DNA of 64,000 bases from Candidatus Poribacteria bacterium (GTDB taxonomy: Bacteria; Poribacteria; WGA-4E; PCPOR2b). Under the pieces are notes generated by a model. It ran no database searches and had not been told where the DNA came from. It worked only from the letters and a program-made list of their open reading frames with translations. The position numbers were made by a program, and so were the translations under genes. The stretch lies in assembly GCA_965208325.1 (NCBI GenBank), contig OZ242326.1:1376001-1440000 (forward strand). Direction: 5' to 3'. Positions 53,492-63,958 of this stretch are shown here, piece by piece. Each line of letters opens with the position of its first letter. The stretch's first letter is position 1.

Positions 53492-56400
53492 TTAGTCTAC
53501 AATCAAAGTCTGAACCTTAGCCTCCAGGTCATGTTCCCAACTGCGCCCGGCGATTTCTCCCGCCGCGTTGATCAGGATGAACGGATGCCACCCGACAGCA
53601 TATCGTTCAAATGTCTCGCCTTTCGCGCCGTCGACCGTAGCTGGGCGGTCTAGTCCAATCGAGCATGACAGCAACTGTTCTGTAATGTGCCGTTTGACCG
53701 CCTCAATCTCGGAGGCGGCGGGACAGACGGCGACGCACACGAGGCCTTTTTCACCGTAAACCTCGTGCAAAATATTCAACAGGCGAATCCATTGTATATG
53801 ATTGGAACGGTTCAAATCCCAGAAATGTAGAACTATCGTCTTGCCTTCCAACTCTCCGATGGATACGGGTGAACCGGACAGCCATTTTGCAACCGCCAAC
53901 TCCGGCGCCGTTTTGTTCAGCAATGTATTGAAGCGATCTTCGGCGGACGCGGCGTATGACCGCTGCAACTGCTGCTCCGGGGTCGGCTCTGGTTTATTTT
54001 CGGACGGCGTTAGAGTTAAAACTAAATCGCGTTGATTCACCGCGATACTCTCAAAAATCTTGTGGTTACGATCAGCGCTGACAGAAATTGACACCATTTG
54101 GTCTTTGATGTGCTTCATTTCAAATTCGCCTAGCCCATTGGTACTAGTGCCGGTGTAGAAGTAACCGGAGACATCTTCTTCGGCTTCAACTCTTACTGAT
54201 GCCTGATTAATCGGCTTGCCATTGGCGTCCACGACTTTCCCAGCGAGGTAACCGTCCCCCTCGATCAACACTAGGTCGTGTCGCTGGTTGGCTTTTAGCA
54301 TCTTGAATCTATGGCGCGCGAACGCTGGGTGATGGGTTTGCAGATTAATGACGACAGCCATTAGTAGATTATCAAACCGAAAATTGCCATTTTCGTCGGT
54401 ATAGGTGTCCCAGCCTTGCGATTGATAGTGTGTATATACCCGTGCACCGTGTACCGGTTGACCTGAAGTATTGGTTATGCGTCCTTCAAGGTAGAACTGA
54501 CCGACCTCTGGCAACAAAATGAGATCCGCGATTTGGGTCATTTCCGCCGTTGCGGTAAATGTCTCGGTTGCCGTCGTCCAATACCCTTCTGCATTCGCAG
54601 AGATTGTGTACTCGTCGCCGACAATGAGTTCAATTTCCCGGTATCGTCCATCGCCATCTGTCACCGCGACGGTCGAAACTAACCCTATTTCCGACTGACG
54701 ATCGAAGTACAGCAGATTTATGTTCACTGACGGAATGGGTTCACCGGCGCGGTCGACTACTCGCCCGGCGACTTTTACGCGCTCATACGGTTCAATCAGA
54801 ATCTCAACCGACGCGTCCGGCTGGACTTCAACCTCCGCCGTTCCGCGCAATTCCAGCTCGCTATGTTCCGCTTTCAAGGCGAGTTTCTGCCCAATTCGTA
54901 ATCCGCGAACCGTAAATTCGCCCTGTTCATCCGACGTGTCGCACGCACTTAAAAAATTGCGCCCTTTTGCGATTATGACACCGGAGACCGGTTCCCCAGC
55001 TTTCGTCAATACTCGACCAGACAATTCCAATCCTTTGGAGAACTGAAAATCTACGACGACAGTTTCGCCCTCAACGACATCAACATACCGCGTAACCTGT
55101 CCGACATTCTGATAGTCTTGCGGGGCATAGGTTGAAACCAGCACGCGGCCAGGCGCAGCGCGGAAACTATAGATGCCGAATTCGTCAGTTGTTGAAACGT
55201 GATCTATCGGCCCAAACTCCGGACCCGGGCGGGCGGTGTCGTGAAACCTAATATGATGGTTCGCAACCGGTTCCTTTGTGTCCTGATCGGTCACCCGCCC
55301 AGAAATATGGCCGCCCCGAACCAGGGTCAAATTTATATTAGACATAATTTGTCCCTCAGCGACCTTAAAAAATTCGTTGGAGGCAGCCGTCCACCCTTCA
55401 GGTACCTCATCAAGATAGAGGTTGTACATACCGGGGGCGATGTTCTTCAGGAGGTAATTCCCATTCTCATCGACACTTACATGTTCCGCCCCCATTCCCG
55501 CGGTCAGTGGAGAGATGCGTAGAAGTGCAATAGTGGCGTTTTTGACCGGCGCGCCGGTATCTGCATAGCTGAGCCGCCCCTCAATCCGAGCCTCACGCTC
55601 CAGCCGAAATTCGAGTCCCGATGCGCCAGGCGGCACAGGGAAACGCATCTCCTCTGCATATCCTTGCCCATGAATAACGAGGCTTGCTGTCACGTCCGGC
55701 GGTAGCCTGCGGAGAACAAACTCGCCGTTCGTATCAGTATTGGTGGGGGGAATGATGGAAATAATGTCTAAGCCAAGGAATAAGTCCCATAGTATTGGGT
55801 TGCTAGAAAATGTGGCGTTACTATACAAGGATTTGATCCGTACTTCCGCATTCTGGATCGGAACGCCCGCCGTGTTTAGAACTCTTCCCGAAATGACCTC
55901 CTGCGTGCCGAGTTGGATTTCAACATCCATCTTGCTTTTTAGCGGGAGGTTCTGCCAACCGATTGCATGATTGGGGTGCGTGGCGACAATGGGGTGTGTG
56001 ATGACGATGTTATCCCGATCTTGCTCCCTGTCGTCGGGACGCTGGACTTCAAAGTGGAACGTGCCATCGGGTGCCGTGCGAGTGACAGTTTCGAAAGATT
56101 TGAGTTTTGACGGGTAAAAAAGTTCGGCATCCGCTACCGGCGCACCGTCACTGTCAACAACCCGGCCGGAGTAAATTAGTTTCTCGTCCTCACCCTTCGC
56201 TGCTACTGCGGGGTGTTGCGGCGTCGCATTCTTTACACCGCCATTACCTGAAACTGACCCTAGTTCAACTGACTCGCGGCTTCGCACCGTTGAACCGCGA
56301 TTGGAGACTCCCGGCGGACGCTTTCCCGACGGGGTCGGTATGCCCGCAATTAACGGACGAATTGCGATGGGAGCGGGTGTAATGAATGCGACCGGAATCG

Positions 56401-57184
56401 GCTGGCTCGTGTCTGACGGCGACAGCCCGATCTGGTTTCTTGGGGACACATTCGGCGAATCGCTTCGCTCTCCAAACAGTCCAACCAAAACACATAAAGC
56501 CATAATCAGCGAAATTAACGCTTTGCTTACTGACGTGCTACCCCACGTGAACCCCATGGTTGGAGATGGAATGTGGCGAATCTGCTCAATTAGCTGCATG
56601 AGGAATCCTCCTTTGAGTTTGCGGCTCTTTACGACTCTGCCGTAATGTTCAGACAACGCGCTGCCGAGCTGCAGCCGCGCACGACGCAACTTGCTCTTGA
56701 CAGTATTGACGGAAACACCGAAAAACTCTGAAATCTCCTTCAGCGAATAATCACCTGCATAGAACATCGACACGACGATCCGACTTTCGTCAGAGAGCTC
56801 TGACATTGCCTGCTCAAGATCTACCTGCCAATCCTGTGTTGGCACCGTGTGTTCAGGTTGAATCTGTAGCGAGTCGTCCACTGCCTGCTCCAGCGCAATC
56901 TCGTGCCGGCGTCTTCTCGTAACACGCACCAGCCAACGTTTGCATTCGTTGGACATGATTGTATACAGCCAGCTGCGGAAGAGATGCGGATGCCGCAGTT
57001 TTTGGAGATGGCGGAATGCCTTTAAAAAAACCTCTTGCGTAATGTCCTGCGAATCGGCTACGTTCCGCACTTTCTGATAGGCGTAGGTATAGACCATGTC
57101 CTGATACTTGTGTACGAGCACACCGAAGGCATCGCGATCCCCGGCGAGCGTTTGAGACACTAACTTTTCGTCGGCTGTATACAT
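53492..57184 (-). CDS. ECF sigma factor fused via TM to carboxypeptidase-regulatory-like Ig repeats and a Cys-less thioredoxin-like domain
   Basis: DEKLV...GDRDAF, DSQDITQEVF, FRSWLYTI, EISEFFGVSVNTVKSKL; TM; repeated GRVVDxxGxP...TDxxGxF units; APEL...LEGKTIVLHFW. Start ATG 57184 chosen from the RBS and the paralog. Confidence 0.88.
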   Translation of the reverse strand: MYTADEKLVSQTLAGDRDAFGVLVHKYQDMVYTYAYQKVRNVADSQDITQEVFLKAFRHLQKLRHPHLFRSWLYTIMSNECKRWLVRVTRRRRHEIALEQAVDDSLQIQPEHTVPTQDWQVDLEQAMSELSDESRIVVSMFYAGDYSLKEISEFFGVSVNTVKSKLRRARLQLGSALSEHYGRVVKSRKLKGGFLMQLIEQIRHIPSPTMGFTWGSTSVSKALISLIMALCVLVGLFGERSDSPNVSPRNQIGLSPSDTSQPIPVAFITPAPIAIRPLIAGIPTPSGKRPPGVSNRGSTVRSRESVELGSVSGNGGVKNATPQHPAVAAKGEDEKLIYSGRVVDSDGAPVADAELFYPSKLKSFETVTRTAPDGTFHFEVQRPDDREQDRDNIVITHPIVATHPNHAIGWQNLPLKSKMDVEIQLGTQEVISGRVLNTAGVPIQNAEVRIKSLYSNATFSSNPILWDLFLGLDIISIIPPTNTDTNGEFVLRRLPPDVTASLVIHGQGYAEEMRFPVPPGASGLEFRLEREARIEGRLSYADTGAPVKNATIALLRISPLTAGMGAEHVSVDENGNYLLKNIAPGMYNLYLDEVPEGWTAASNEFFKVAEGQIMSNINLTLVRGGHISGRVTDQDTKEPVANHHIRFHDTARPGPEFGPIDHVSTTDEFGIYSFRAAPGRVLVSTYAPQDYQNVGQVTRYVDVVEGETVVVDFQFSKGLELSGRVLTKAGEPVSGVIIAKGRNFLSACDTSDEQGEFTVRGLRIGQKLALKAEHSELELRGTAEVEVQPDASVEILIEPYERVKVAGRVVDRAGEPIPSVNINLLYFDRQSEIGLVSTVAVTDGDGRYREIELIVGDEYTISANAEGYWTTATETFTATAEMTQIADLILLPEVGQFYLEGRITNTSGQPVHGARVYTHYQSQGWDTYTDENGNFRFDNLLMAVVINLQTHHPAFARHRFKMLKANQRHDLVLIEGDGYLAGKVVDANGKPINQASVRVEAEEDVSGYFYTGTSTNGLGEFEMKHIKDQMVSISVSADRNHKIFESIAVNQRDLVLTLTPSENKPEPTPEQQLQRSYAASAEDRFNTLLNKTAPELAVAKWLSGSPVSIGELEGKTIVLHFWDLNRSNHIQWIRLLNILHEVYGEKGLVCVAVCPAASEIEAVKRHITEQLLSCSIGLDRPATVDGAKGETFERYAVGWHPFILINAAGEIAGRSWEHDLEAKVQTLIVD
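56597..56614 (-). promoter_or_regulatory. Internal in-frame Shine-Dalgarno + ATG after the sigma domain
   Basis: AAAGGAGG-ATTCCTC-ATG (codons K-G-G-F-L-M). Confidence 0.6.
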
Positions 57185-57234
57185 AATAACCACCTTATCC
57201 GAAAAACAAGTATGGAAGCCCTATTTGAATTACA

Positions 57235-57263
57235 TAGACACATCAAGCGAACCAGAGGTTGCA
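57235..57263 (-). promoter_or_regulatory. Putative ECF-type promoter
   Basis: TGCAAC-N18-GTCTA, 50 nt upstream of ATG 57184; same geometry as at 63206-63235. Confidence 0.55.
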
Positions 57264-57784
57264 CCGCGTGGATAAAATAGTTGAAAAACTCAAGGAATAG
57301 TACCAAAGAGATGTCTCAAACGATTGAATCCCGCTTCAATGAGAATATAAATCACGCAACCGCGACAGGGGATAGGAAGGCTGTGTTTATGGGACAACTA
57401 CATCAAAGGTGGGGCTAATAGCGGACGGAGATGAAAGACAAACCAAATTTGCGATAACTAGGCAACGGGGCAGATCCTGTCCATGGCGCAAACTCTCTTC
57501 ATGTTTAGATGGACTACACCGGAATCGTCTATTATGGACCGGCAGACTGCAATTAGATGAATTATCCTGCGGCTAATCTTGATGCCGGTAGTTTTCGAAT
57601 CGGATGAAATGGAATAATAAGGTGGGGTTTTTACCAGAGAGGTGTTTACATAGATTCAGGCCGCAAATATGCCAATTGCAGCACCGCGGCTGCAGCAGGT
57701 AGAGATACGCATTCGACCCAACCTACACCGCTGCAATTCTGATAGATTAGCGAAGCGAATCAGGATTTAGCAGTGATCGGCAAT

Positions 57785-59026
57785 TTACTTTGTTCGTGTC
57801 GTCTTCTCGGGAGTGCTGTCCTTTTCGATGATAGCAATGTGCGGCAGGCGCCACTCTATGCTTGCAGGACCCACGTCGAACCATTCACCCGATAATCCCA
57901 TCGAAACGAAATCTTCCTCGCCCCGGTCTTTATCGTGCGGTTCATGGGGCGCCCAGTTTGTGAATGTCACCGGCTCACCGTTCGCCCAAACCCATTCCCC
58001 TTCGTTCGCATAATCCGTCAGTCCAATCCAGCACCGATTTGGTCCAAAGGTTTTTGATATCCAGTCCTGCTCTGCTGCATCGTTGATTGCAACGAGATAC
58101 CCACCTTCGGCAGCGGCTTGAGTGTTGGCTTCATCCCAACTCTCGCTACTAATTCGCTTGTACGCGTGCCCATTTGCTGGATTCACCACCCACGCTGCGC
58201 CGACGCCCCGTGGTGACGTTGACACTTCCGCAGAAACTTCGACTCGACCAGTGGGACCTTCAGGCCAATTCGGAAGTCTGTCGAGCGCGAAAACCAAATC
58301 TTCTCTGTCTTCTCCTTGTTTTAGCAGGAAAGGATCTGCTGACGCCGAAAGCCTGTGATAGTTCACCGTCATTGTGTAGATTGCGGGTTCATCAACGAAG
58401 TAATTAAAATAACCGTCAGTGTCAGTCTCGTTCGAGGAACTTGAGCTACCGCTACCCGTCCCGTCGGGCGTACGGTGGTTTACGCTGACATTAATCCTCG
58501 CACTGGAAAGCGGGGTGCCATTGAGAAACACAATGCGTCCCCGAATGTAATTCCGCAATTTCACTCTGACTTCGACATTCTCAACGTGCACGTCCGGATT
58601 AATGGCGAACACGATTCCCTGCCAAGGCGAATACTCGTGCCGGTAAATGGTCAGTGTCGCCACCCTTACGGAAATGATTTCGCCGCTGGTCCCGGACGGA
58701 TGATAAAACTTGGTGGCCGGTGTTAATCGGACTTTTGCCGGCGGGATGTTTTTCATAGAAAAACGTCCCATTTCGTCAGAGTGCGATTCTGAAAGTGTGA
58801 TGAAGGTTCCTTCAACTGATTCAAGCGAAAACGGTAAAAGGGATAGCCCAAATCCCGCAACCGGATTACCTTTTAAATCAACAACACGGCCGGACAGTGT
58901 AGAAGTACTGTCCAGAGCCATACCCTGCAACGATGCGGCGAATGTAAATACCATTATCCCAACAAGTAGCCGCAGGTTCTCTCGCCTAAACGCGGCGTAT
59001 AAACACCTTAAATGTAACCAGTTCAT
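57785..59026 (-). CDS. Exported carboxypeptidase-regulatory-like + C-type lectin domain protein
   Basis: AAAGGAGG RBS before ATG 59026; hydrophobic leader; SGRVVDLKGNP; NGHAY...SWDEA...YLVAIND...WIGLTD...GEWVW...NWAPHEP. Confidence 0.85.
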   Translation of the reverse strand: MNWLHLRCLYAAFRRENLRLLVGIMVFTFAASLQGMALDSTSTLSGRVVDLKGNPVAGFGLSLLPFSLESVEGTFITLSESHSDEMGRFSMKNIPPAKVRLTPATKFYHPSGTSGEIISVRVATLTIYRHEYSPWQGIVFAINPDVHVENVEVRVKLRNYIRGRIVFLNGTPLSSARINVSVNHRTPDGTGSGSSSSSNETDTDGYFNYFVDEPAIYTMTVNYHRLSASADPFLLKQGEDREDLVFALDRLPNWPEGPTGRVEVSAEVSTSPRGVGAAWVVNPANGHAYKRISSESWDEANTQAAAEGGYLVAINDAAEQDWISKTFGPNRCWIGLTDYANEGEWVWANGEPVTFTNWAPHEPHDKDRGEEDFVSMGLSGEWFDVGPASIEWRLPHIAIIEKDSTPEKTTRTK

Positions 59027-59264
59027 GGAAGATGCCTCCTTCGGAATGTTGAATGCGACCGAGGACGAATCCCTCTGTGAATGACCCAAATCGGTCTTTT
59101 GACGAAGCCAATTAGGGTTTGATTTCTTGACAACCCGGTTTTTTTACCGGGGAATGGCTAGACGATGGCGTTGCCGCTCACGTATCAAACAAGCTGTAAA
59201 CGCTGTTTCTAGCTGATATACGCTTAGCAATCACTTTGCGTTCAAGGCGTCAAATTATCGAGTG

Positions 59265-60728
59265 TCAACGTCGCTTTTTCCCCGGCGATTCACGTCTTTT
59301 CGTTTCGGAGTCATTACGCCCTTCAAAGGATTCATGTCGTTTTTCATTGAGATTGCTCCGGTCTTTTTTACGCTCATCATCATCATGAAGTATTTCAGGT
59401 TCATCCGGCAAATTTAGATTAGAAGTCGGGTCATCCGTATCTTCCAACGACTCCAGCAACCTATCCAACTCCTTCGCCTCGACCCCGCCGGGGAATTTCC
59501 AATCCTCAGCTTGCTTCATTTGGTTTTCCAATTCGGGTGGGACGATTGGCGCCGGGATCGGCTGTTCCAAACCCTCCAGAAATTCCGCCATCTCTAGCGA
59601 CGGTGCGGCATGGCGCGGTGCTGCCACAGGCGCGGAATCGTCCACTGCCGAGTCGGATGCGGAGGTCCAAAGTGATGAACGGGATACAGGCTTCGGTTCG
59701 GCAACGTTCGCAGGTTGCGAATCTGTTCCTGACGGAAGCACTACGTCGGACTCGGAACGGGCGATCTCCGGTCTATCATCATCAAATATGCCGGCAAAAT
59801 TCCCCCATACCTTCGCCATTCCTCGCCTCGGCGCATCAGCAGGTTTGCCGTCTGGACCGATAAAGCCAATCTTCACATGTTCGGGAAGTTTCTTTGTGAA
59901 AGGGAATGGGGTATGTAAGTACTCTTGTATAGCACCAACATCGTATGACTCGCCCACAGCAGGAAAGTGTAGCTCACCGATACTCCCGTCCGAGTTAATT
60001 TCATAGTAGGTCGTATCGGCTCTGAGCGGAAAGCGTGTCCCATCTTTGGCTCTGGCAATCGTGACAAATTTTCCTTCATTCCATTGTTGTGCGAAAGTTG
60101 GGTCTTTTAATGCTTCTTTCACATAATAGTGCGTCTCCAGAAAATGCTGAATTCTAGTTTCTTCAAACTGTGCCGACGACGTGTCCACCGGCAGCCCCAT
60201 ACGTTCTAGCACACTGTTTTTGTAATCGGCATCATTTCCAAACAGGGGTTGCTCGAAAAACTGCTGCTTTGAATGTAGCAGATTGAACCGATACATGAGG
60301 AATGAATTGTATTCCGCACCGTTCTCGATTAGCAGGCCTTTATCCAGCAACATCTGCAGGAATTCTGCACGCGGATAGGCTTGGTCGACATTTGCTAAGT
60401 CGATGCCGCTGAAATTAATCGCCTGCGACTCAACCCATGTGTCAAAATTAGTGTCATGCGCTTCCATAAGGGCTTCGACAGATTGCGGGTTTTGAAATGA
60501 GGTTGAATCGGAAATGTGACGCATTCGAGTCAACTCCTCGTCCGCCCCTTTGACGACAGCTGTCCACCAATAGTCCCGCAAATAGTTGCTTATCGCAATC
60601 TCTTCTGGTGAACCATCGCTCTGGCTAAAAACAACGTGCTGTCGATGTAACAGTGCAGCGATAACAGCCGCCGCAACAACTCCCAGACCAATCATTACAA
60701 TCTTCCACTTTGACAAGGAAACCAACAT
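59265..60728 (-). CDS. Hypothetical membrane-anchored protein with low-complexity C-terminus
   Basis: 487-aa ORF, AAGGAG RBS, N-terminal TM, Pro/Ser/charged tail; no family recognised. Confidence 0.7.
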   Translation of the reverse strand: MLVSLSKWKIVMIGLGVVAAAVIAALLHRQHVVFSQSDGSPEEIAISNYLRDYWWTAVVKGADEELTRMRHISDSTSFQNPQSVEALMEAHDTNFDTWVESQAINFSGIDLANVDQAYPRAEFLQMLLDKGLLIENGAEYNSFLMYRFNLLHSKQQFFEQPLFGNDADYKNSVLERMGLPVDTSSAQFEETRIQHFLETHYYVKEALKDPTFAQQWNEGKFVTIARAKDGTRFPLRADTTYYEINSDGSIGELHFPAVGESYDVGAIQEYLHTPFPFTKKLPEHVKIGFIGPDGKPADAPRRGMAKVWGNFAGIFDDDRPEIARSESDVVLPSGTDSQPANVAEPKPVSRSSLWTSASDSAVDDSAPVAAPRHAAPSLEMAEFLEGLEQPIPAPIVPPELENQMKQAEDWKFPGGVEAKELDRLLESLEDTDDPTSNLNLPDEPEILHDDDERKKDRSNLNEKRHESFEGRNDSETKRRESPGKKRR

Positions 60729-60953
60729 GATAGGTGCTCCTTTCTCCTAATGCTAGATTGTTGGTGAAGATACCAAATGATTAAACCTAAACACCAACCC
60801 TTCAGGCGTTTTTTTTACTCATTCAATCTGGCTATTAGGATGGTTGTTCGTGAAAGTGTGTTTGGATTTACACATTGTAGCGCTGTGAACACTCAGTAAT
60901 TCGATCGTTAATTACCATGCGGTTATTTTTCACCGAATTGTGTAAATTTAAGG

Positions 60954-63143
60954 TTATTCGTTCTCATTGGGAGGCGGCGAGGCGAAACCTTGTCTTTCGA
61001 TGATAGCCTTCTGGGTCATCCGCCACTGTGGGCTTTCCGGTCCAACATCAAACCATTGTCCATTCGGACTGAGACCCATGAAGACGTAATCTTCTTCACC
61101 GAGCGGCGACTCGGTCGGTTCATTGGGCGCCCAGTTCGTGTAAGTAGCCGGTTCGCCGCTGGACCATCGCCATTCCCCCGCCTTTTCGATATCAGTTAGT
61201 CCAATCCAATAGGGCTCGGTACCAAAAACTTTCACCAGCCAACTCTGCTCCGAGGCGTCGTTAATCGAAACCAAGTATGCATCCTCGGTAATCGCTTTCG
61301 CTTGAGCATCTTCCCAACTTTCACAATGAATGCTTCGATAGGCGTGACCATTTTGAGGATTCATCACCCAAGCTCCATCTCGGTCCGGCGGCGCGGCGCT
61401 ATCCGGTGTTGGCTCAATGGGAATTGGCGGGCTGTCAAGCGTTATGACCAAATCATCATGCCGTTGACCGGTTTCGAGAGCAAATTGCTCCGACGTCGCC
61501 GATAAGCCTTGAAATTCAACAGCTACCGCGTAAAATCCTGGCTGAGGCGGATTCACATAGTGCACAAAGTATCCCGCATCGTCCGTGCGGGGCAATCCTC
61601 CGCTACTACCCGTGCCTTCCCCATCAAATGTACGCCATCGCACGCTAATCAGAACTTTCGCCTTGGCAAGCGGTGTGCCGTCGGTGAATACAACCTGACC
61701 CCGAATGCGCATCCGCGGTTTAACTACAATTTCAAAATTATCAATGTGTGTCCCTGGCTCAATGGTAAATGTAATGCCACCGTGAGGGGGCGGTTGCCGG
61801 GAGTCCGCATGAAAAGTCATCGCGCCAGTATCTATGGACAAAACCTCCGCGTCTACAAAATTGTCTTGGTCGTAGCTGTGCGGAGGCATGTCATCGCTTG
61901 TTACAGGATTGGGCTGTGCCATGAACTGGAGAGGCCCGGGTTTGATGCCAGAAATCGAAAACCGTCCCTCTTCGTCCGTGTCCGATTTGAACGTGTACGG
62001 CTGTGCGTCCCTCCTGAACCAATCATAACTGAACATTGGCATGATTTTGCCGTCAAATGACATCAGCGGTCCAACAGCTATGGGGAATCCCGCGATTGGA
62101 TTGCCATCTGTGTCAACCACACGGCCCGATAAGGCAATTTTATCGGAACCGCTCACCGATGCAGCAGTTGTGAATTGCGGACTCGGGGATTTGGCACCCC
62201 CAGCCACGGCAGTGGTTTCTCGGTAAACTGGCTCGGAGTTCGGCTCCACTGAGGCGCGGTTGGCGACCGCCAATGGATGCTTTCCCGACGTGGCAGGAAT
62301 ACCCGTAATTGACGGGCGTGCGGAAAACGGAGGCGAAGCAAGTAACACGACCGGGATCGGGCGGTTCGCGTCTGGCGGCGACAGTGCAGTTTGATTGCCT
62401 GCGTACGCTTTCGGTGAGCTGTCTCGTGCTCCGATAAGTCCAATCAGGATGCACAATGCCGTAATCAACGAAAATACCGTCTTGCTAACAGTTGCACTGG
62501 TCCACGTGAACCCAACTGTTGGCGGTGGGATATGGCGTACCTGCTCCATAAGTTGCATGAGGAATCCTCCTTGGAGTTTGCGGCTCTTCATGAATCGACC
62601 GTAGTGTTCAGACATCGCGGTGCCGAGTTGCTGCCGTGCTCGATGTAACTTGCCCCGGGCGGTGTTCACGGAGACGCCGAGAAATTCTGAGATTTCCTTC
62701 ATCGAACAGCCACCCATGTAGAACATCGACACCGCCACGCGATTATCGTCCGGGAGCGCAGAGATTGCACGCTCTAAGTCCACCTGCCAACCTTCTGTTG
62801 CGGCAGTGTGTGCGGGTTCAATCTGTAGGGCATCGTCTGTAGCGTCGTCCAACGCAATTTCGCGCCGGCGTGTTTCCGTGGCCCGCGCCAGCCAGCGGTT
62901 GCACTCGTTGGACATGATTGTATACAGCCAACTTCGGAACCGATGCGGGTGCCGCAGTTTGCAGAGATGCCGATATGCCCGGAGGAAAACCTCCTGCGTG
63001 ATGTCCTGCGAGTCGGCTTCGTTCCGCACCTTCTGAAAGGCATAGGTGTAGACCATGTCCTGATACTTATGCACGAGCACACCGAAGGCGTCTCGATCCC
63101 CCGCAAGGGTTTGAGACACTAAGTTTTCGTCGGGTGAATTCAT
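60954..63143 (-). CDS. ECF sigma factor fused via TM to carboxypeptidase-regulatory-like domains and a C-type lectin domain
   Basis: Sigma head nearly identical to that of 53492..57184; TM TVFSLITALCILIGLIGA; WIGLTD...NWAPNEP lectin motif; GAGGT RBS before ATG 63143. Confidence 0.88.
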   Translation of the reverse strand: MNSPDENLVSQTLAGDRDAFGVLVHKYQDMVYTYAFQKVRNEADSQDITQEVFLRAYRHLCKLRHPHRFRSWLYTIMSNECNRWLARATETRRREIALDDATDDALQIEPAHTAATEGWQVDLERAISALPDDNRVAVSMFYMGGCSMKEISEFLGVSVNTARGKLHRARQQLGTAMSEHYGRFMKSRKLQGGFLMQLMEQVRHIPPPTVGFTWTSATVSKTVFSLITALCILIGLIGARDSSPKAYAGNQTALSPPDANRPIPVVLLASPPFSARPSITGIPATSGKHPLAVANRASVEPNSEPVYRETTAVAGGAKSPSPQFTTAASVSGSDKIALSGRVVDTDGNPIAGFPIAVGPLMSFDGKIMPMFSYDWFRRDAQPYTFKSDTDEEGRFSISGIKPGPLQFMAQPNPVTSDDMPPHSYDQDNFVDAEVLSIDTGAMTFHADSRQPPPHGGITFTIEPGTHIDNFEIVVKPRMRIRGQVVFTDGTPLAKAKVLISVRWRTFDGEGTGSSGGLPRTDDAGYFVHYVNPPQPGFYAVAVEFQGLSATSEQFALETGQRHDDLVITLDSPPIPIEPTPDSAAPPDRDGAWVMNPQNGHAYRSIHCESWEDAQAKAITEDAYLVSINDASEQSWLVKVFGTEPYWIGLTDIEKAGEWRWSSGEPATYTNWAPNEPTESPLGEEDYVFMGLSPNGQWFDVGPESPQWRMTQKAIIERQGFASPPPNENE
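62556..62572 (-). promoter_or_regulatory. Internal in-frame Shine-Dalgarno + ATG after the sigma domain
   Basis: AAGGAGG-ATTCCTC-ATG (codons Q-G-G-F-L-M). Confidence 0.6.
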
Positions 63144-63205
63144 AGCACACACCTCAACCGAAATGATACACCACAACCCCGCAACAGCCCAGACAAAACT
63201 ACTTA

Positions 63206-63235
63206 TTAGACCCGCTGCGCGGATAAAAAGTTATG
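63206..63235 (-). promoter_or_regulatory. Putative ECF-type promoter
   Basis: CATAAC-N18-GTCTAA, about 63 nt upstream of ATG 63143. Confidence 0.55.
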
Positions 63236-63631
63236 CCTTAGCGAAAAAAATTCGGGTGTGGCTGCACCTATCGCAGCGGGTCACCTTGCCCCAACGCACC
63301 GATGATAAGCGAGGCGTCTTGCCCTACATTCCTTATGAATCATCGAATCACGGCGCGGATAAAGAGTTACTCCGCAAAAAAATATTTCCGAGCGTGTTCC
63401 ATCTTCAATCCAAACAATAAACAGTTGAAAACCTCGGCTGCCGCGTGTAAAATGAATAGGACCAATCATTGATTCCACGCACGATTAAGGTCTAATGTGA
63501 TCGGCAAATTACGATAGCATCGCAGTAATTATTTTACTCCAAGAAACTCTAAAGGAGTTGAAAAGAAATTAAACAACCTCATCCAAATTAGACCCACACC
63601 ACCCAGAATGGTTGACATCAGGAGGTTTAAA

Positions 63632-63958
63632 ATGGGAAAAATCAAACCGCATATTGAAATCACACCCGGAATTTGCGGCGGTAAACCTCGCATCGCCGGA
63701 CACCGGATTCGGGTGCAAGACATCGTGATATTGCACGATAAGATGGGCAAAGACCCATATGAGATTGCCAATGACTATCCTTCCATTACATTGGCCGATG
63801 TCTATGCCGCACTGGTTTATTATTTGGACAACCTAGAAGAAATTCGCCAAGACATTGTAGAGTCGGAGAGATTAGAGGATGAGATGAGTGCCAAGACCCG
63901 TTCCCCACTGATGCAGAAAATCAAGGAATGGAATCAAAATCATGCCTCAAACGATTAA
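63632..63958 (+). CDS. DUF433 antitoxin-like protein
   Basis: IEITPGICGGKPRIAGHRIRVQDI, YPSITLADVYAALVYY; AGGAGG RBS before ATG 63632. Confidence 0.88.
   Translation: MGKIKPHIEITPGICGGKPRIAGHRIRVQDIVILHDKMGKDPYEIANDYPSITLADVYAALVYYLDNLEEIRQDIVESERLEDEMSAKTRSPLMQKIKEWNQNHASND

Follow-up and report, generated by a model that had tools for sequence, protein, structure and literature searches.

Does a single gene for an extracytoplasmic function (ECF) sigma factor fused to a membrane-anchored ectodomain encode two proteins? The question is raised by a 64,000-nucleotide stretch of a Candidatus Poribacteria genome (contig OZ242326.1, positions 1,376,001 to 1,440,000; hereafter the window), in which two paralogous genes, here called A and B, carry a Shine-Dalgarno (SD) sequence and an in-frame ATG at the junction between the sigma part and the rest of the protein. 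A first-pass annotation of the window had suggested that one gene makes two proteins, and this idea is well supported by conservation at synonymous sites and by natural sigma-less alleles, the second product itself being a prediction. Taking the possible roles of that product together, the junction is quite probably a working second start, and we lean towards the more specific reading in which the sigma-less copy is the likely output of a gene that regulates itself.

Gene A (53492-57184, minus strand) encodes 1230 amino acids (136 kDa), laid out as an ECF sigma factor (regions 2 and 4), a linker, one transmembrane (TM) segment, carboxypeptidase-regulatory-like repeats and a C-terminal thioredoxin-like domain. 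Its Pfam matches are PF04542 (residues 23-90), PF08281 (122-173), eight copies of PF13620 and a weak PF00578, and a family profile gives the thioredoxin-like end a ResA-like match. Gene B (60954-63143, minus strand; 729 amino acids, 80 kDa) likewise has an ECF sigma factor, a linker and one TM segment, followed by a carboxypeptidase-regulatory-like domain and a C-type lectin domain. Both sigma parts consist of region-2 and region-4 domains without sigma3, as in ECF (group 4) factors, with PF04542, PF08281 and TIGR02937 above cut-off. Foldseek matched the sigma part alone, with SigW, AlgU and sigmaE as the best folds, the ESM Atlas matches were generic ECF clusters only, and a Pfam search found no FecR-type or zinc-finger domain in either ectodomain. 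Each protein has a single hydrophobic segment, predicted as a TM helix at residues 216-238 of A (56471-56539, minus strand; an AlphaFold2 helix with a hydropathy peak of 2.39) and, by alignment to A, at residues 216-238 of B (62430-62498, minus strand; peak 2.18). In the AlphaFold2 model of A (mean predicted local distance difference test score, pLDDT, 76.8), sigma4 ends at residue 187, a Gly-Gly pair lies in a loop (188-193), and a helix at 194-203 (pLDDT about 85) precedes the TM helix. The named homologues of A and B are from Ca. Poribacteria. The fusions are not assembly errors, since independent contigs span both junctions: that of A is covered by contigs from two public runs of one study and that of B by a contig of one of these runs, with zero differing letters in either case.

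The junction codons are CTC AAA GGA GGA TTC CTC ATG CAG CTA in A and CTC CAA GGA GGA TTC CTC ATG CAA CTT in B. AAGGAGG-ATTCCTC-ATG is therefore in frame in both paralogs, at 56599 and 62558, as first annotated, and Gly-Gly is GGA-GGA in both amid differing neighbours (AAA/CAA, CAG/CAA, CTA/CTT). The SD occupies 56613-56607 in A (minus strand; codons Lys191-Gly192-Gly193) and 62572-62566 in B (minus strand), and a spacer of 7 nucleotides separates it from the ATG of codon 196 (56597-56599 in A and 62556-62558 in B, both minus strand). Initiation at Met196 would give a protein of 1035 amino acids (113 kDa, N-terminus MQLIEQ) from A and one of 534 amino acids (58 kDa, N-terminus MQLMEQ) from B; the predicted TM helix of A starts 20 residues past Met196. 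We expressed SD strength as pairing energy with the genome's own anti-SD, the usual form of which is present at the 3' end of its 16S ribosomal RNA. By this measure the internal SD is indeed stronger than that of the 5' start, yet modestly (-11.8 vs. -10.6 kcal/mol in A and -11.2 vs. -9.5 kcal/mol in B). Genome-wide, 103 of 13,861 internal in-frame ATGs have an SD at -11 or better, and of 4696 Gly-Gly pairs 3236 (69%) open with GGC and 576 (12%) with GGA.

A search of 61 genomes returned 80 homologous matches in 32 genomes. Six were excluded, two for broken frames (L072, L076) and four for other junctions (L073, L074, L077, L078), leaving a counting set of 74 fused homologues from 30 genomes and five genera, with a tree length of 6.9 substitutions per site. 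The synonymous-site check that the annotation had proposed was run on this set. Gly192 is spelled GGA in 64 of 66 genes and GGG in the other two, and its third position changes twice on the tree, the lowest value among 59 four-fold degenerate columns, the other 58 of which average 12.7 changes; the GGA is retained across all five genera. Lys191 is AAA in 41 of 41 cases and Arg191 is AGA or AGG in 24 of 25. The third position of Gly193 changes 14 times and is never that of GGC in the 74 genes, GGC being the commonest Gly codon elsewhere in these genes (33%). Base changes at Gly192 and Gly193 are limited to those that still pair. Codons 190, 193 and 197, beside the SD glycine, vary freely. The codon of Met196 is ATG in 73 of the 74 and GTG in one. 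All of the eight seven-codon windows with the lowest synonymous change overlap codons 186-200, there are zero length changes between codons 168 and 204, and in 67 of 73 genes the SD at the junction pairs more strongly than that of the 5' start (medians -12.9 and -7.4). Homologues thus neither use random Gly codons nor lack the Met, and the caveat that shared sequence between close paralogs is weak evidence is answered by a signal that holds over the whole set. The pattern of substitutions indicates that the junction SD is under selection at synonymous positions, beyond mere similarity of the paralogs. A stop in the +1 frame at codons 185/186 (69 of 74) was considered as a frameshift or reinitiation signal and rejected; stops at 148 and 226 are equally conserved, and this one persists because Leu followed by an A-starting codon produces it.

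Natural alleles bear on whether the junction ATG can start a protein. A junction and tail search of 159 genomes gave seven matches without a sigma match, chosen by eye, in which the sigma part is deleted or decayed and the tail is open for 703-1028 codons. In these alleles just weak TTG or ATG starts lie in frame upstream of the junction ATG, which is the first with a strong SD (-8.9 to -13.9), and four of the seven retain the promoter described below. Five of them, each from a different genome, make up a single clade (support 0.90) that branches from within the fused genes and is under purifying selection, the ratios of nonsynonymous to synonymous substitution rates (dN/dS) between pairs being 0.21-0.31 at dS 0.29-0.69; L256 and L260 are separate losses of sigma, at least two independent ones beyond the clade. 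Leu190 and Gly193 are invariant in the 74 fused genes, and within the five-allele clade they are replaced in three alleles each (Leu190Pro, Gly193Asp), yet AAAGGAG is kept in all five; with the protein constraint lifted, the SD core is thus what persists. Lying between A and B, moreover, a stand-alone gene (57785-59026, minus strand) encodes a sigma-less paralog of the B ectodomain, 413 amino acids long with an N-terminal hydrophobic segment, which has its own AAGGAGG-N8-ATG, 41% identity over 407 amino acids to residues 324-717 of B, the same Pfam domains, and orthologues in genomes G002 and G003. Together, the sigma-less alleles and the stand-alone paralog indicate that the tail has a use as a protein by itself and that the junction ATG is able to start it. 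Two further candidates, L263 (a single frameshift) and L054 (a TAG), may be sequence errors and were left uncounted. The genome of the window also has three fusions of other families with a deleted or decayed sigma region and a tail open from the junction SD and ATG, at G000:C1 3997557 (L082), 2628697 (L086) and 3097919 (L085). In four of the sigma-less alleles (L257, L258, L259, L262) the Pro-rich linker is also lost, and Ala-rich, possibly cleavable, sites follow the hydrophobic stretch.

The arrangement extends to other ECF fusion families. All 14 ECF frames of the genome with tails of more than 250 amino acids have an in-frame SD and ATG, the SDs scoring -8.6 to -12.5 and lying 9-37 codons past the region-4 motif; among random 44-codon windows, 86 of 3000 (2.9%) contain such a pair. 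The SD is spelled through GGA-GGN (KGGFLM, SGGLTIM), AAG/GAG-GAG (LKKEMIPM, LKEEMIQM) or AGG-AGG (ERRKTM), that is, in all three frames. Three weak sigma4 matches outside the 14 were rejected as fusions, two being primary-type sigmas and the third a short protein. Relatives contain 149 fusions, of which 141 were scored at a threshold of -8 or better, eight unclassified ones being left out. Junction windows passed in 29/30, 25/28, 41/45, 18/18 and 15/20 members of the five families (128/141), and control windows inside sigma, in the same order, in 2/120, 0/112, 4/180, 18/72 and 8/80 (32/564). The SD codons of relatives' families are GAG in 28 of 28, GGA in 40 of 42 and AGG in 18 of 18 cases, vs. 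48%, 13% and 10% elsewhere. The site stays with the sigma cassette while the cargo changes, both between A and B and in the ERRKTM family with its two cargos. The neighbouring genes L085 and L166 share one sigma-ERRKTM cassette and have two unrelated cargos, with the exchange point immediately past the internal Met.

Planctomycete fusions were scanned for on genome contigs with a degenerate pattern, third positions free, of a planctomycete motif. Among the matches listed, 103 of 125 had an in-frame sigma upstream, and in those 103 the Gly is GGA in 87 (vs. 14% elsewhere in the same frames) and the Glu is GAA in 91 (vs. 37% elsewhere); other Glu-Gly pairs among the matches listed are spelled GAA-GGA in 10 of 210 cases. 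A second scan, of metagenomes and with the Met position free, had 14 family members among the 120 matches listed, with ATG in 12 and GGA in 13 of them; the 106 non-family matches listed had ATG in 2 and GGA in 27. Codon usage at these junctions indicates that the same kind of selected SD recurs in a second phylum, the Planctomycetes.

Several observations weigh against a start that works within the intact gene. The homologues are kin and hence not independent, and allowing for rate variation leaves a moderate signal at the single site (z = -2.3; for half the mean rate, simulated P 0.03). The SD is lost by Gly192Ala in 8 of the 74 fused genes, in about three events with the Met kept throughout, and the excluded divergent homologue L074 has neither the GGA nor the Met, so that some lineages can do without the site. 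Met196 is kept no better (73/74) than Met77 (72/74), Met140 (74/74) or Met143 (71/74). In a folding profile of 37 of the 74 genes, structure at the site is weaker by just +1.7 kcal/mol than under synonymous resampling, a difference equalled at another offset. Three other families stand out at single codons, their sliding-window dip not being top-ranked; there, a non-SD Gly three codons past the ATG is also GGA in 43 of 44 cases, and the high control of one family (18/72) is not fully explained. Finally, the sigma-less alleles prove the start usable when it is 5'-most, not that it fires within an intact frame; its use there is inferred from the synonymous constraint in the fused genes. Two homologues or groups with altered junctions were noted in passing: the clade of L015, L045 and L049 combines loss of the internal SD with absence of the promoter motif and a 5' SD that is stronger (about -10), and in L073 the family sigma is joined without a TM segment, via a different junction, to a kinase-like-looking soluble domain.

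What would the two products do? A motif common to 61 of 75 upstream regions, consisting of a T-tract, GCATAAC, 18 nucleotides and GTCTAA, is what we take to be an ECF-type promoter. It lies at 57230-57265 upstream of A (minus strand; -35 GCAAC, 18 nucleotides, -10 GTCTA) and at 63202-63237 upstream of B (minus strand; -35 GCATAAC, 18 nucleotides, -10 GTCTAA). A genome scan with a matrix built from non-self homologues found, at scores of 23 or above, the three family genes alone. The third paralog (L088; G000:C1:1440094-1443792, just beyond the window) has the best promoter score, and its junction, AAAGGAGGG TTT CTC ATG, carries the SD. A looser genome scan with the matrix turned up a smaller number of sites than shuffled sequence did and pointed to no other regulon. 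A matrix trained on homologous upstream regions could miss a diverged regulon, which counts against the proposed circuit. If the sigma reads its own promoter, its main target would be its own gene and the short product its natural output. In the reading we favour, ribosomes would use the junction SD and ATG while the sigma part is intact, and one mRNA would yield a full-length membrane-tethered sigma sensor together with a membrane-anchored ectodomain that lacks sigma. This second protein would presumably be the more abundant, because the internal SD is stronger. Sigma would be freed through intramembrane proteolysis, by analogy to IutY, and would then recognize the promoter-like element and transcribe its own gene, raising the level of the sigma-less product as the likely output. 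It is possible, though we hold this more tentatively, that the fusions of Poribacteria and Planctomycetes at large are one-gene circuits, in which a portable promoter-sigma-SD cassette can sit on any cargo and mostly plain cargo is made. A minority sigma-tagged copy would sample the cargo's fate at the surface, and its cleavage would turn up its own gene. As the SD occurs in three frames at different places, such a design would have arisen several times.

The best surviving alternative, which we nevertheless consider unlikely, accepts the start and has its product act on the full-length protein, as a signal or protease decoy, a heteromer partner or a trans anti-sigma that sets the threshold. 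The first-pass annotation had named an anti-sigma or decoy isoform; that role is not supported as a general purpose and is conceivable as a decoy for the A/B family, in which a single cytoplasmic helix is left in the short product. This helix (194-203), predicted before the TM segment, aligns with the FTxxxM helix of other families; helix 4 of class I anti-sigma factors is described as binding sigma2 (PMC7406223), and helix 194-203 may by analogy correspond to it. A class I anti-sigma domain has four helices, helix 1 on sigma4 and helix 4 on sigma2; in A, one separate helix is predicted between sigma4 and TM. Heteromers with CheA-S are known (PMC13515050), and each of the seven sigma-less alleles has fused paralogs at a distance of at most about 10 kb. 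On the other hand, the short product lacks Phe194 and all that is upstream of it, no anti-sigma match was found for A or B in Pfam, and the 60 best solved-structure matches listed did not include an anti-sigma chain. Nor is there such a helix in the short products of other families, those of the SGGLTxMK family and of the planctomycetes beginning almost directly at a hydrophobic segment and that of the ERRKxM family being an unrelated soluble domain, so that the common denominator is cargo without sigma.

It is improbable that the SD-like run is instead an elongation pause, for sigma folding or for targeting before the TM segment, or another RNA signal, with the Met kept for protein reasons. 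Synonymous constraint alone cannot separate a pause from a start, the ordinary conservation of Met196 would fit, and the site precedes a TM segment in most families. A pause, however, would not need a start codon at 5-11 nucleotides, yet one is present at five unrelated junctions: the junction Met is found in 30 of 30, 18 of 18 and 44 (plus one GTG) of 45 members of relatives' families, and ATG in 12 of the 14 planctomycete-family members among the matches listed. Soluble fusions carry the site too, and the sigma-less alleles have no other strong start.

The annotation's other suggestion, a fossil of operon fusion, is disfavoured, and we judge similarly improbable a latent start from a fused operon or captured gene that is silent in the intact frame and used after sigma loss. 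It has been proposed that planctomycete extensions came from sequestered downstream genes (PMC7671368), the site of KKEM-type families sits exactly where a downstream gene would begin, and loss of the SD is tolerated as noted above. Against this, the GGA resists synonymous change over the full tree length while neighbouring third positions turn over 13-14 times, the genome otherwise avoids GGA-GG in Gly-Gly, the positions differ by family, and the site moves with the sigma cassette as cargo is swapped. That a protein constraint on a Gly-Gly turn before the helix, with slow or gene-converted DNA, mimics SD selection is largely refuted and extremely improbable, for although the pair lies in a predicted loop, the paralogs stand in tandem clusters and some non-SD columns are slow (4-6 changes), the GGA is kept in five genera beside freely varying codons, Gly192 and Gly193 change only to still-pairing bases, and the same signal recurs in three frames and two phyla.

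Around the two genes, the gene 3' of A is convergent. An open frame 226 bases downstream of B (59265-60728, minus strand) encodes 487 amino acids with an N-terminal TM segment and an acidic tail; its product has no Pfam or NCBIfam match, and an orthologue is present in G002 but was not seen in the G003 cluster. A small gene (63608-63958, plus strand) and an overlapping frame after it lie between B and the third paralog; the pair may be a DUF433-type antitoxin and its partner, with no NCBIfam match. Repeats of TTTATCCRCGC (minus strand) occur close to the promoter of A (57280-57290) and that of B (63215-63225), and also at 63355-63365 upstream of B. A metaproteome (PMC6081418), considered and set aside, describes six poribacterial proteins, all putative oxidoreductases, with no bearing on the junction start.

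In Planctomycetes and Poribacteria, ECF fusions with long extensions belong to the signalling genes that have expanded most. The literature covered takes the extension for a fused regulator and reads each gene as a single protein. If the junction start works, many surface proteins are absent from annotations, knocking out or truncating such a gene removes or alters two products, and fusions of sigma to lectin, WD40 or thioredoxin-like domains receive a testable answer, namely that the extension is also the output. The prediction is testable in cultured planctomycetes, one of which (L337, Singulisphaera acidiphila DSM 18658) carries the site. No description of an internal start in an ECF fusion turned up in the open-access literature searched.

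Fusions of ECF factors to TM segments are already known as IutY, ECF52 and ECF57. The last comprises planctomycete ECFs with a TM-bearing C-terminal extension (PMC7826278, PMC7671368), described there as 100% Planctomycetes, with about two TM helices, an invariant Cys pair (sigma2, sigma4) and no conserved promoter. Like ECF57, the A/B family has a sigma cassette with interchangeable extensions, a membrane tether and a carboxypeptidase-regulatory-like link; unlike it, the A/B proteins are poribacterial and have one TM segment and a conserved promoter. Compared without alignment to the ECF57 positions, their cysteines also differ from the invariant pair, Cys81 being present in 74 of 74 and Cys146 in 50 of 74 (Tyr in A). 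The hybrid sigma/anti-sigma factor IutY of Pseudomonas putida (ECF243; PMC5411451, PMC8999054), with ECF48/52/53 alongside, is closer, since A and B share its cytosolic ECF domain, one TM segment and extracytoplasmic domain in a single chain, although their ectodomains are carboxypeptidase-regulatory-like repeats with lectin or thioredoxin-like folds. Proteolysis is the model for sigma release from IutY in the same two papers, and the main text of PMC5411451 does not contain the terms 'internal', 'translation' or 'start codon' and describes no internal start for IutY. On the features described in these sources, the A/B proteins resemble IutY-type hybrids but fail three of those given for ECF57.

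In-frame internal starts are known from ArcB/ArcB-C of E. coli (bioRxiv 10.1101/520783) and from CheA-L/S and CcmM58/35 (PMC13515050). Genes A and B have the workable SD spacing and in-frame start of ArcB-C-type internal initiation and, as described for ArcB-C, CheA-S and CcmM35, an internal SD and in-frame start at a domain boundary, synonymous conservation and a predicted N-terminally truncated isoform. Those cases are single genes whose products were shown by experiment, whereas the proposed poribacterial design is family-wide and extends over many paralogs; its short product would omit the sigma factor and retain the half that comprises the membrane and extracellular portions.

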